A DNA stretch of 64,000 nt. Origin: an uncultured Planctomycetia bacterium (lineage in GTDB: Bacteria > Omnitrophota > Gorgyraeia > 2-02-FULL-51-18). The stretch's first letter is position 1. Each line of letters starts with the position of its first letter. This document shows positions 61,189 through 63,761 of this stretch, one piece after another. A program made the position numbers and the translations under genes. The DNA lies in assembly GCA_964431835.1 (NCBI GenBank), contig CAYSKO010000010.1, forward strand, positions 267 to 64,266. Reading direction: 5' to 3'. A model generated the notes under the pieces. The model was given only the letters and a program-made list of their open reading frames with translations, made no database searches and had not been told where the DNA came from.

Positions 61189-61479
61189 TTAGTAGGAGAA
61201 CTCGACCGTGAAATCGTCGAAATCCCCGGAGGGATCTTCCCAGCGGCAGTCGGCTTTCTTGATGTGAGGACCGAGCGTGCTCGCGCGAATCTTCTCAAGG
61301 AGGAGATCGATCTTTTCTTTCGGACCCTCGCACACCATCTCGACGCGGCCGTCCGTGAGATTCTTCACCCATCCGGTGAGGCCCACCTCGAGCGCGATGC
61401 CCTCGGCGGTGTGGCGGAAACCGACGCCCTGGACTCGCCCCGAGTAATGCACGTGCGCGCGGGCGGCGGGCTTCTTCAT
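61189..61479 (-). CDS. acyP: Acylphosphatase
   Basis: The C-terminal 96 codons of a longer spurious ORF read [27 protein letters not shown]...[17 protein letters not shown].... The start overlaps the upstream stop (ATGA). Confidence 0.85.
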
Positions 61480-62807
61480 TTCTTTTTCCCTTGAGGCAGG
61501 TGCGCGATGAGACGCGCGATCTCGTCGCGGAGCTTGGCGCTGTCGTGGCGTACGAGCTCCGTCTCGTTGCCGACGTCCGCGAGGATGAGCTTGGCGTGCG
61601 TCACCCGGCGCAGGCGAGCCGGGGCGGGCGGCGCGACGGGCTTCTGGTCCTTGCGCGCGTATTCCTCGATCGCTTCCTCGGAGAGGCACGTGTTCGAAAC
61701 GATCACCGAGTCGAGGCAGTCCTTGCCGAGATAACGCACGATCTCCCGCGCGTGGTCGGCGGCGTCGTAGCCCCACGTCTCGCCGGGTTTCGTCATGAGA
61801 TTGCATACGTAAACTTTCTTCGCGCGCGAGCGCACCACCGCTTCGCGGATGTCGGCGACGACGAGATTCGTGGCGACGCTCGTGAAAAGATCGCCCGGGC
61901 CGATCACGATGAGGTCCGCGTGCACGAGGGAGGAAAACGCCTCGGCGTCGCATTCGGGGGGAGGATCGTGCCAGAGGCGCTTCACGCGCGCCTGGGGCGG
62001 ACGGCCCACGCAGCGGTCGATCTTGCTCTCCCCTTTCACCACCGCACCGTTCGAAAAACGCGCCACGAGCGAGGTGAGCGTACGTGTCGCCGGGAGCACG
62101 ATTCCCTGGATGTTCAAGATGTCCGAGAGCGCTTTCACGGCCTCTGACATCGATCCTTTCACCTCCGCGAGCACCGTGAGGAAGATGTTTCCGAAGCTGT
62201 GTCCATGGAGATCGCCGCGCTTCTCGAAGCGGTGCTGGATGATCTGGTTCATGACGTCCGGCGCGTTCGAAAGCGCGACGAGGCTGCGGCGGATGTCGCC
62301 AGGAGGCAGGATGCCGAACATCTGAGAAAGCTTGCCCGAGGAGCCGCCGTCGTCCGACATGTTCACGATCGAGATGACGAGCGCGTTCGGAAGCGTCTTG
62401 ATACCGAGAAGGAGCGTAAAAAGACCCGTGCCGCCGCCGATGCACGCCACGCGCTTCTTTTTTTGGACGACCGCGTTGAAGCGCATGATGAACTCGCGCT
62501 GATTGAACGGCCGGAGAACGGTGTCGGAAGCGCCGAGCGCGGCGGAGCGAAGGATTGCCTCGCGGTCTTTCTGGGCGGAAACGGCGATAAACGGGACGCC
62601 GGCTCGCTTCAGGCGTCTCATGATACGCTCCTTGCGCGCGGCGTCCATGAAGGGGTCGTTGTCAATGACGGCCGCCGCGGGACGTGTGCGGAGCGCCCGC
62701 TCGAGCGCGGCCTCGTCCGGCACGGCGTGCACCCGCAACGGCATGCGCGCGAGAATTGTCGCTATTTCAGCGTGAAGGGCGGGATCGCCGACGGCTAGAA
62801 TGTTCAA
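61476..62807 (-). CDS. Receiver-domain / YvcK (gluconeogenesis-factor, UPF0052/CofD-like) fusion protein
   Basis: 443 aa. Residues approx. 1-115 are CheY-like (MNILAVGDPALHAEIATILAR...AAAVIDNDPF...FIAVS...). Residues approx. 120-443 are YvcK-like (ACIGGGTGLFTLLLGIK...MSDDGGSSGKL...PPGDIRRSL...VIGPGDLFTSV). Confidence 0.75.
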   Translation of the reverse strand: MNILAVGDPALHAEIATILARMPLRVHAVPDEAALERALRTRPAAAVIDNDPFMDAARKERIMRRLKRAGVPFIAVSAQKDREAILRSAALGASDTVLRPFNQREFIMRFNAVVQKKKRVACIGGGTGLFTLLLGIKTLPNALVISIVNMSDDGGSSGKLSQMFGILPPGDIRRSLVALSNAPDVMNQIIQHRFEKRGDLHGHSFGNIFLTVLAEVKGSMSEAVKALSDILNIQGIVLPATRTLTSLVARFSNGAVVKGESKIDRCVGRPPQARVKRLWHDPPPECDAEAFSSLVHADLIVIGPGDLFTSVATNLVVADIREAVVRSRAKKVYVCNLMTKPGETWGYDAADHAREIVRYLGKDCLDSVIVSNTCLSEEAIEEYARKDQKPVAPPAPARLRRVTHAKLILADVGNETELVRHDSAKLRDEIARLIAHLPQGKKK

Positions 62808-63220
62808 ACGCCGAGCTCCGGGGCGACTAATTCGAAGAAAGCGCGGTCCTTGGCGTGTGTGAGGAGGCGTGACACCTCGCCGACCGGCACCCAGCGCGCT
62901 TCGGGGTTGTCGGGATCGATGGGCTTAAGCTCCATCTGGGCCGTCTTAAAAAGAAACATTTCAATGATCTTGAGCTCGGCCGGGTCGTCGCCACCGCCCT
63001 TGGCGATACGCGGACGCTCGTAGCGTCCGAGCTCCCGCACGAGCGTGAGGTCGTTCACACCCGATTCCTCGAGAATCTCGCGGCGCGCGGCCTCAAGGAC
63101 GCTTTCGCCCGGATCGACATGGCCTTTAGGCAGGGACCACGAATCACGGTTCTGGTTCACGACGAGCACCTCGCCGCGGCGGTTCAGCACCACGCCGCCG
63201 GCGCTTAAGGATTTCTTCAT
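62804..63220 (-). CDS. NUDIX hydrolase
   Basis: 138 aa with Nudix box GHVDPGESVLEAARREILEESGV. Confidence 0.85.
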   Translation of the reverse strand: MKKSLSAGGVVLNRRGEVLVVNQNRDSWSLPKGHVDPGESVLEAARREILEESGVNDLTLVRELGRYERPRIAKGGGDDPAELKIIEMFLFKTAQMELKPIDPDNPEARWVPVGEVSRLLTHAKDRAFFELVAPELGV

Positions 63221-63239
63221 AGGACCATTCTATCAGGCG

Positions 63240-63761
63240 TCACTCGATTTCGTCGATAGCGTGCGCATAGGCTGCGAACGTCTCGTCGTCGAAGCACGCG
63301 ACGATCACGCGCTCAATCGGTGCGCCCCGCTCGAGGTGGCGGCGAATTTCGGCGACGGCGATGCGGGCGGCACGGTCGAGCGGAAAGCCGTAGGCTCCCG
63401 TGGCGATGGAGGGAAAGGCGATGCTGCGGACGAAGCATTTCTCCGCAAGCGTAAGGCAGCTCCTGTAGCACCGCGCGAGCGCGGCGTCTTCGTCGTCGGC
63501 GCCGCCCTTCCAGCGCGGACCCACTGTGTGGATCACCCAGGGAGCAAGCAGCCGGTAACCGGCGGTGATTTTGGCGTCACCCTTCGGGCAGCCGTCGAGC
63601 TTTTTACATTCCTCGAGGAGATCCGGACCCGCGGCGCGATGAATCGCGCCGTCCACACCCCCTCCGCCGAGAAGCGACGAGTTGGCGGCGTTCACGACGG
63701 CGTCGACGCGCAGCTTCGTGATGTCTTCACGGAGGATCGTGAGCTTATCGGTCCAGGCCAT
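63240..63761 (-). CDS. Macro-domain protein (O-acetyl-ADP-ribose deacetylase / ADP-ribose-1''-phosphate-processing type, YmdB/MacroD-like)
   Basis: True start is MAWTDKLTILREDITKLRVDAVVNAANSSLLGGGGVDGAIH.... The track ORF's N-terminal 39 codons are a read-through of the tRNA-Pro gene. Confidence 0.85.
   Translation of the reverse strand: MAWTDKLTILREDITKLRVDAVVNAANSSLLGGGGVDGAIHRAAGPDLLEECKKLDGCPKGDAKITAGYRLLAPWVIHTVGPRWKGGADDEDAALARCYRSCLTLAEKCFVRSIAFPSIATGAYGFPLDRAARIAVAEIRRHLERGAPIERVIVACFDDETFAAYAHAIDEIE

Follow-up and report, generated by a model that had tools for sequence, protein, structure and literature searches.

A putative response-regulator-like GlmR (YvcK) protein in Candidatus Omnitrophota

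The stretch of DNA analysed here (64 kb, called the window; all coordinates are window positions) encodes on its minus strand a protein, REC-YvcK or REC-GlmR, in which an N-terminal domain with the predicted fold of a response-regulator receiver (REC) is followed by a GlmR/YvcK domain. To judge from the sequences compared, YvcK normally takes this fused form in Candidatus Omnitrophota. GlmR is a protein that binds UDP-GlcNAc (uridine diphosphate N-acetylglucosamine), an accessory uridyltransferase for N-acetylglucosamine-1-phosphate (GlcNAc-1-P) and an activator of GlmS, and it is still debated whether it acts as GlmS activator or as accessory uridyltransferase. It is assumed here, with roughly even credence and on the basis of sequence comparison and a predicted structure, that REC-GlmR is a response-regulator-like GlmR in which a receiver set by phosphorylation would control the GlmR domain. 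The gene and its two domains are:

62807..61476, minus strand: REC-YvcK (REC-GlmR), 443 amino acids, TTG start at 62807, stop TGA at 61478-61476, GGAG 8 nt upstream of the start.
62807..62457, minus strand: receiver (REC) domain, residues 1-117, assigned from the predicted model, Foldseek, phmmer and column statistics.
62456..61479, minus strand: YvcK/GlmR (CofD-like) domain, residues 118-443, assigned from PF01933, TIGR01826 and Foldseek.

The N-terminal domain can be predicted with confidence to have a receiver fold of the OmpR/PhoB type. An AlphaFold2 model of REC-YvcK, built with 77 homologues as input, reached a mean predicted local distance difference test score (pLDDT) of 89 and a predicted template-modelling score (pTM) of 0.91. 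In this model residues 2-114 form (βα)5, that is five strand-helix units (β1 2-6, α1 9-18, β2 25-29, α2 32-39, β3 45-49, α3 56-69, β4 73-77, α4 82-90, β5 95-98 and α5 103-114), with a pLDDT of 93-97 over the block. Foldseek searches against the PDB returned PhoB (1zes, BeF3), PhoP (2pkx) and KdpE (1zh2) with a target template-modelling (TM) score of 0.78-0.82 and a root-mean-square deviation (rmsd) of 2.4-2.8 Å; with the CpxR receiver included, these ranges are 0.75-0.82 and 2.4-2.9 Å. The receivers of PhoP and MtrA of M. tuberculosis are matched by phmmer at E about 8e-5. A CheY-like receiver at this end of the protein had been proposed in a first-pass annotation made from the letters alone, which named the lack of a receiver fold in structure prediction as evidence to the contrary; the fold is modelled, with a pLDDT above 93, and the proposal holds.

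The output domain is complete and, to judge from its residues, looks fully functional. PF01933 (CofD/YvcK) is matched over residues 120-394 at 2.5e-83 (280 bits against a cutoff of 30), and the YvcK model TIGR01826 is matched with 295.4 bits (cutoff 196). Foldseek aligned the domain with BH3568 (2o2z) at a target TM score of 0.93, an rmsd of 2.0 Å and 39% identity; among UPF0052 structures, 2o2z and 2hzb reach 0.92-0.93 with an rmsd of 2.0 Å and 2ppv reaches 0.88. The GGGTG nucleotide loop lies at residues 124-128. Residues were mapped on Listeria and Bacillus GlmR through the BH3568 alignment (2o2z/2hzb), by which D152 and D153 (in the motif SDDGGSSG) and N314 correspond to D40, D41 and N198 of Listeria GlmR, and Y383 and R420 to Y265 and R301 of B. 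subtilis; each of the five is either invariant or conserved in at least 90% of the 77 homologues. When D40, D41 and N198 were all mutated in Listeria, uridyltransferase activity was about 100-fold lower (PMC10128056), and in B. subtilis both Y265 and R301 are required for UDP-GlcNAc binding (PMC10128056, PMC13046274). GlmR is controlled by PrkC phosphorylation at T304, by acetylation of K296 and by UDP-GlcNAc (PMC13046274); in the window protein the position of T304 is Ser423 and that of K296 is Glu415.

Both domains are encoded in one unbroken open reading frame (ORF) of 443 amino acids. In the model, practically no linker separates the receiver helix α5 (103-114) from strand 118-124 of the YvcK domain and its GGGTG loop, and this junction, in which KKxR connects helix α5 to the GGGTG strand, is conserved among the homologues. 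Two gene calls exist for the window gene. P0121 gives the same 443 amino acids, and P0001, a call of the Joint Genome Institute (JGI), gives 422, starting at the ATG of Met22; the latter drops strand β1 and part of α1 (62744-62807), so the receiver domain is hidden in that call. The TTG start is backed by homology, by the model and by the GGAG upstream of it, and residues 2-21 align with the homologues and are modelled with a pLDDT of 94-96. In many other database entries, too, the receiver may be hidden by a wrongly called start. At two other loci, L010 (6605-8125) and L026 (6611-8125), about 65 extra residues, helical by sequence prediction, precede the receiver, possibly due to over-extension of the ORF.

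The first-pass annotation had recommended a census of the domain architecture, and the homologues compared speak clearly for the fusion, which is repeated in more than 120 assemblies independent of each other. All of the 120 best homologues carry the N-terminal domain, are about 430-465 amino acids long and cover about 98% of the query, and those that are named are mostly proteins from metagenome-assembled genomes (MAGs) of Candidatus Omnitrophota annotated plain "YvcK"; around 30 of the 120 listed carry a precomputed PF00072 match. A scan with one genome per species returned 80 loci. In 28 of them (L001-L027 and L032) the N-terminal extension measures 114-189 amino acids, and these belong to Omnitrophota or to contigs probably mis-binned as Planctomycetia or Kofleriaceae. 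Of the 47 loci from other phyla (Patescibacteria, DPANN archaea, Nitrospirota, Chloroflexota and others) whose ORF is intact, 46 have an extension of at most 39 amino acids. A widespread version of the fusion with a canonical receiver was also considered and rejected. The sole candidate is P0085, from a Nitrospinota MAG (3.8-kb contig), a YvcK fusion whose pocket is canonical throughout (DD, D, S, K); the nearest relatives of its receiver are all stand-alone CheY-like proteins, a search for a second fusion of this kind found none, and P0085 is treated as a singleton, possibly a recombinant or a chimeric contig. A receiver-only profile run against 1.84 billion representatives gave 74,756 matches at E≤1e-3, including tens of thousands of ordinary receivers; its ranking consists largely of multi-receiver proteins, and at 50% identity the family shrinks to a few clusters, which makes this search uninformative as a census of architecture.

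The active site was read from column statistics over the 77 homologues, with β1 of the window protein ("NILAVGD") set on that of CheY ("KFLVVDD"). The key residues of the receiver are G7, D8, D49 (62663-62661), D51, S77, T96, R99 (62513-62511), P100, R104 and E105. The phospho-acceptor D57 of CheY corresponds to D49, at the end of strand β3 and within the motif AAAVIDNDPF in which the phospho-Asp had been suspected; Asp occupies this column in 71 of the 77 homologues (92%). CheY T87 corresponds to S77, with Ser or Thr in 74 of 77 (96%), and P110 to P100, with Pro in 73 of 77 (95%), and the column of K109 holds Lys in 52 of 77 (68%) and Arg in 17 of 77 (22%). Two residues after the phospho-acceptor (the D+2 position) stands D51, an Asp found in 88% of the 77. 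Canonical receivers encoded beside REC-YvcK genes, 13 in number, all keep a DD, DE or ED pair, and none of these 13 has an acidic residue at D+2. On the α4-β5-α5 face the charged residues D95, R104 (invariant), E105 and R109 are conserved in the 77 homologues. We take them to be the equivalents of D101, K110, E111 and R115 of PhoB, the dimerisation residues of the OmpR/PhoB family.

Kinases and CheY-like genes lie beside REC-YvcK in a number of relatives, and this gene order points to a two-component input. At locus L088 (4113-7368) REC-YvcK is preceded, at a distance of 7 nt, by the gene for a PAS-HisKA-HATPase kinase whose H, N, G1 and G2 boxes are intact; nearby there is no further regulator. 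At L004 (4732-8323) the genes for a kinase, a CheY-like receiver and REC-YvcK are joined by 4-bp overlaps, and the order kinase, receiver, REC-YvcK is repeated at L005. Locus L089 (2410-7326 from kinase to REC-YvcK) comprises a kinase, three receiver genes, REC-YvcK, a receiver-epimerase fusion and a further receiver, and at L008 a receiver gene precedes REC-YvcK. Kinases are found two or three genes upstream of REC-YvcK in L005, L018, L019, L021 and L032. Those of L004, L088 and L089 are orthologous (48% identity over the full length between L004 and L088, 53-56% between the cores), and they have in common the H-box FxSxVSHELRTPLSIxKEGI and intact G1 and G2 boxes. Among 29 fused species-level loci seven kinases were detected, every one of them on the strand of REC-YvcK and 2-4 genes upstream of it. 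Canonical two-component neighbours occur at 10 or 11 of the 29 fused loci and at none of the 47 unfused ones, an imperfect control because the latter are mostly genomes of the candidate phyla radiation (CPR) and DPANN, poor in two-component systems.

Two further observations concern these loci. The kinase of L004 and L088 is flanked by a divergent mutS, which at L002 stands immediately next to REC-YvcK, as though a kinase between them had disappeared. Directly downstream of REC-YvcK, at L089 (7329-8711) and L009 (7886-9274), a canonical receiver (DD, D, T, K) is fused to a NAD-dependent sugar epimerase/dehydratase; the sequences suggest that the habit of Omnitrophota to wire nucleotide-sugar enzymes to receivers is wider than REC-YvcK.

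From these features we infer phosphorylation of D49 and an effect of it on GlmR. A histidine kinase or a phosphorelay would phosphorylate D49 and so set the state of the receiver; for orphan copies such as the one in the window, a distant kinase or a small phosphodonor may do the same, and D51 possibly takes over from the metal ligand that was lost. The receiver's state would alter the α4-β5-α5 face and with it receiver dimerisation, and through the rigid junction between α5 and the first strand of the output domain the GGGTG nucleotide loop would be altered, and with it GlmR activity or partner binding. The outcome would be a gated flow of carbon into UDP-GlcNAc and the cell envelope, a His-Asp counterpart of the control of GlmR by Ser/Thr kinases in Firmicutes and Actinobacteria. 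Phosphorylation-controlled YvcK had been put forward in the first-pass annotation as well; the kinases and CheY-like genes of the relatives make it plausible, although the orphan state of the window copy and the loss of its acidic pair do not fit it well.

A considerable number of observations weigh against control by phosphorylation. The Mg-binding acidic pair after β1 is lost and G7-D8 stands in its place in the window protein: the column of CheY D12 holds Gly in 64 of the 77 homologues (83%), and that of D13 holds Asp or Glu in 23 (about 30%). The aromatic switch Y106 is T96 in the window protein (Tyr or Phe in 77% of homologues), and K109 is R99, Arg and not Lys. The Pfam model Response_reg (PF00072) matches residues 8-108 with 21 bits (E 3.8e-4), below its gathering cutoff of 30.2, and a profile of canonical Omnitrophota receivers gives 15.7 bits, compared with 130 for the true regulator in the window. 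P0033, from the window's own clade, has lost D51 and the K-P pair, and a divergent subgroup (L018, L019 and L021) has Thr or Glu in the phospho-acceptor column. Loci with a kinase usually hold a canonical single-domain receiver too, which could be the kinase's real partner, and a more canonical acidic pocket was looked for in the kinase-adjoining members and not found. The REC-YvcK gene of the window is an orphan copy without a kinase beside it. A single kinase is encoded in the 64 kb (44793-46277, minus strand); it lies 15 kb away and forms a pair with a regulator of its own (46281-47060); together (44793-47060, minus strand) they are the sole two-component genes detected in the window with local profiles.

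Having lost the acidic pair and kept Asp, Ser/Thr and Lys/Arg-Pro, the receiver is therefore degenerate. It had been called possibly degenerate on account of the Arg at the K-P position, and R99-P100 is indeed found there; as the aligned sequences read, the degeneracy lies mainly in the lost acidic pair and not in the exchange of Lys for Arg alone. Glu at the position of the phospho-Asp is a classic phosphomimetic substitution. In the L018/L019/L021 subgroup the sequences give hints of phosphorylation-independent derivatives within the family.

The same observations favour the strongest alternative, a possible one that falls short of being probable: the N-terminal domain would be a phosphorylation-independent pseudo-receiver, a constitutive α4-β5-α5 dimerisation or docking module in which D49 is structural, as in GlnR-type regulators. 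The Gly that replaces the first acid, the acid kept at the second position in a minority, the sub-threshold Pfam score and the weak score against canonical receivers of the same phylum, R99 and T96, the further decay in P0033, the Glu or Thr at the phospho-site of L018, L019 and L021 and the orphan state of the window copy would all be expected of such a domain. The module may then dock phosphorylated CheY-like proteins or other partners, and canonical stand-alone receivers do lie between the kinase and REC-YvcK in L004, L005 and L089. Nevertheless, without phosphoryl chemistry it is difficult to account for the fact that Asp (92%), Ser/Thr (96%) and Lys/Arg-Pro (90-95%) have been kept together. 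The Asp at D+2, which is specific to the family, has no counterpart in the 13 neighbouring canonical receivers and could replace the metal ligand, argues in the same direction, and so does the two-gene unit of kinase and REC-YvcK at L088, where no other receiver is present.

The response-regulator-like reading of REC-GlmR can also be stated in a bolder form, which we consider rather doubtful. REC-GlmR would be the terminal acceptor of a dedicated Omnitrophota pathway, composed of a sensor kinase and optional CheY-like receivers, and would serve as a post-translational switch of UDP-GlcNAc and envelope synthesis in which a DxD motif replaces the acidic pair. If true, this would mean both a new class of response-regulator output and a new variant of receiver chemistry.

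All genes under study lie on the minus strand and are transcribed from high to low coordinates, in the order macro, NUDIX, REC-YvcK, AcyP, LigA. Besides REC-YvcK, the following features make up the locus:

63948..63920, minus strand: strong promoter-like site (11/12) ahead of tRNA-Pro (CGG), from the promoter scan.
63894..63817, minus strand: tRNA-Pro (CGG), found by ARAGORN and Rfam.
63806..63779, minus strand: GC-rich hairpin with T-run, terminator-like, 3' of tRNA-Pro, from the terminator scan.
63761..63240, minus strand: macro gene, MacroD-type, 173 amino acids (PF01661, 150 bits), with a 19-nt gap before the NUDIX gene.
63220..62804, minus strand: NUDIX hydrolase, 138 amino acids (PF00293, 83 bits), its stop overlapping the TTG start of REC-YvcK (TTGA).
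61479..61189, minus strand: acylphosphatase (AcyP), 96 amino acids (PF00708, 82 bits), its ATG overlapping the YvcK stop (ATGA), with an 11-nt gap before ligA.
61177..59141, minus strand: LigA, NAD-dependent DNA ligase (Pfam), in the same tightly packed gene string.
58583-59125, minus strand: ORF of 180 amino acids with a lipoprotein signal (…VLLTAGC), between ligA and xerD.

Coordinates and family assignments of the first-pass annotation agree with Pfam and NCBIfam. The adjacency of the genes was also seen correctly there, with the direction reversed, for AcyP lies downstream of REC-YvcK in the sense of transcription and the NUDIX and macro genes lie upstream; of the ATGA couplings of 4 bp it described, the one between REC-YvcK and acyP exists, and the overlap of NUDIX and YvcK reads TTGA.

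On these neighbours the annotation had built a functional model, according to which acetyl phosphate or another acyl phosphate, tuned by the co-translated AcyP, donates the phosphoryl group, and the NUDIX and macro proteins link REC-YvcK to the turnover of ADP-ribose and O-acetyl-ADP-ribose. Orphan regulators are often targets of acetyl phosphate, which counts for this model, as do the real overlap of REC-YvcK with acyP and the intact catalytic motifs of all three neighbours. Each of the three exceeds its Pfam cutoff. AcyP (cutoff of PF00708 22.5 bits) contains RVQGVGFRH and GWVKN. The macro protein passes the O-acetyl-ADP-ribose deacetylase model NF001664 (222.8 bits, cutoff 200) and shows its motifs GGGV and GxYG in LLGGGGVDGAIH and ATGAYGFP. 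The NUDIX box is complete (G33-x5-E39-x7-R47-E48-x2-E51-E52-x-G54). The nearest solved relatives of the NUDIX protein are the diadenosine tetraphosphate (Ap4A) hydrolase of Aquifex (3i7u, 4e-14 over the full length) and Thermus Ndx1, that is Ap4A and diadenosine hexaphosphate (Ap6A) hydrolases; an ADP-ribose pyrophosphatase is matched at 3e-5 over the Nudix box only, and the score of every NCBIfam equivalog is far below its cutoff. The X-loop contains both Y67 and P70; the Pro besides the Tyr leaves some room for the model and the substrate markers are ambiguous (PMC5389931). Of the supposed ADP-ribose pair, the macro protein keeps its assignment and the NUDIX protein can less clearly be counted as an ADP-ribose enzyme.

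The model is made very unlikely by comparison of the loci. The window belongs to a sub-clade composed of its own contigs (L090/L091) and four relatives (L081, L084, L086 and L087; 57-66% identity), which share a housekeeping block of more than 13 kb, from panC/panD to rpsO. Its order is (dapB), aminotransferase, folK, panC, panD, Asp dehydrogenase, sigma factor, hypothetical protein, tRNA-Pro, NUDIX, then nothing, ogt or a DMT transporter, then REC-YvcK, AcyP, LigA, lipoprotein, XerD, RbfA, TruB, RibF and S15. AcyP follows REC-YvcK directly in all five sub-clade genomes, with 4-bp overlaps in three; because of the shared syntenic block, however, the adjacency of AcyP and NUDIX in the sub-clade carries little information. 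The whole gene string is tightly packed and 4-bp overlaps are typical of it, acyP being packed equally tight against ligA. In some relatives ogt or the DMT transporter is inserted between the NUDIX gene and REC-YvcK. In the four syntenic relatives NUDIX follows tRNA-Pro directly and none has the macro gene, which is present only in the genome of the window, between tRNA-Pro and NUDIX; on this comparison it is a genome-specific insertion beside the tRNA gene. Searches over ±7 kb around 30 REC-YvcK loci of greater distance returned neither AcyP or NUDIX (profile hidden Markov models, E≤0.01) nor macro (phmmer), LigA is absent beside these distant loci, and tblastn over the 80 genome loci placed AcyP, NUDIX and macro in the syntenic sub-clade only. 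A functional cluster of the three is not borne out by these searches, and for the orphan sub-clade the model keeps a slight probability, with synteny as its only backing. As far as gene order tells, AcyP, NUDIX, macro and LigA owe their place beside REC-YvcK to lineage-specific synteny and do not belong to the system. The most exotic-looking proposal, a link to acyl-phosphate and ADP-ribose metabolism, is consequently not supported.

More distant REC-YvcK loci have diverse neighbours with a recurring sugar and envelope flavour, among them hexokinase, ROK kinase, UDP-GlcNAc 2-epimerase, GT2 and PMT glycosyltransferases, polysaccharide export and PurF, and at L088 GlmS is encoded three genes downstream of REC-YvcK. 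In the window itself, the lipoprotein-like ORF has no Pfam or NCBIfam match, and every relative of the sub-clade keeps it between ligA and xerD. At the 3' end of the macro gene, ahead of NUDIX, there is a weak promoter-like site (63256..63227, minus strand), and a further tRNA gene was located by Rfam at 14253-14328 (minus strand).

That the fusion is an artefact, in which a frameshift, a misassembly or an over-extended ORF has joined a small receiver gene to yvcK, would agree with the JGI call, which begins at Met22 and in which no receiver domain is seen, but it is practically excluded by the uninterrupted ORF, by the same architecture in 120 of the 120 best homologues and in 28 independent species-level genomes from many studies, by the alignment and high pLDDT of residues 2-21 and by the conserved junction and the pTM of the model, so that the misassembly feared in the first-pass annotation can be set aside.

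A literature search for YvcK, GlmR, CofD or UPF0052 fused to a receiver, or present in Omnitrophota, found no description, and a GlmR/CofD-like output domain of a response regulator was not found reported in it either. Pfam annotation shows receiver and YvcK together in about a quarter of the listed homologues, and the fusion is therefore present in databases, unremarked; public gene calls and names, such as plain "YvcK" or the JGI call lacking β1, conceal the receiver domain. Little is known about GlmR outside Gram-positive bacteria (PMC13046274, 2026). The protein stands at the branch point of central carbon metabolism and peptidoglycan precursor synthesis, and a phylum with a receiver-wired GlmR, kinase-linked in some species, would mean that control of the phosphorylation type evolved independently of PASTA kinases. 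For biochemistry, REC-GlmR may provide a natural switchable GlmR, and for two-component signalling a previously unreported output domain. A receiver which has Asp, Ser/Thr and Lys and lacks the acidic pair is moreover a test case for the minimal requirements of phosphorylation.

The closest known systems are GlmR/YvcK of B. subtilis and L. monocytogenes and CuvA of M. tuberculosis. With the solved homologues 2o2z, 2hzb and 2ppv, residues 118-443 share 36-39% identity, the fold is the same (target TM score 0.88-0.93), and the catalytic and UDP-GlcNAc-binding residues are common to both. What is also shared is the logic, GlmR being placed under a phosphorylation-type control. The known proteins, however, are stand-alone and about 310-330 amino acids long, and their regulation, through PASTA Ser/Thr kinases (T304), acetylation and YvcJ, works in trans, whereas the window protein has its receiver fused in cis. 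In Gram-positive bacteria GlmR/CuvA is phosphorylated in trans by PrkC, PknB and PrkA (PMC13046274). Genomic context differs too: the yvcJ-glmR-whiA operon is typical of Firmicutes and Actinobacteria, and neither in the 21 kb around REC-YvcK nor in the loci of its relatives does any called gene belong to the RapZ (yvcJ) or WhiA Pfam families. In B. subtilis, a NUDIX gene presumably lies just upstream of glmR, in the order yvcI(nahA)-yvcJ-glmR-yvcL. Its product NahA converts (p)ppGpp to pGpp (PMC7584652). In contrast to that region, the NUDIX neighbour is not conserved across the REC-YvcK loci of Omnitrophota.

Among two-component proteins, REC-GlmR resembles CheB, PleD and RpfG-type regulators in having a receiver N-terminal to an enzyme-like domain, and the OmpR/PhoB family in the charged residues of α4-β5-α5 and in the kinase-regulator operons of some members. 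It differs from canonical response regulators in that it has no acidic pair, a conserved Asp at D+2, Arg in place of Lys (in the window protein) and no flexible linker. Atypical receivers and pseudo-receivers such as GlnR of actinomycetes, HP1043, FrzS and ChxR likewise have an incomplete phosphorylation pocket, are often orphan, and their Asp is sometimes structural. In most of these Asp, Thr or Lys has been lost too, and their outputs are of the DNA-binding or coiled-coil type. REC-GlmR, in contrast, keeps Asp, Ser/Thr and Lys/Arg in at least 90% of its members, and some of them adjoin kinases.

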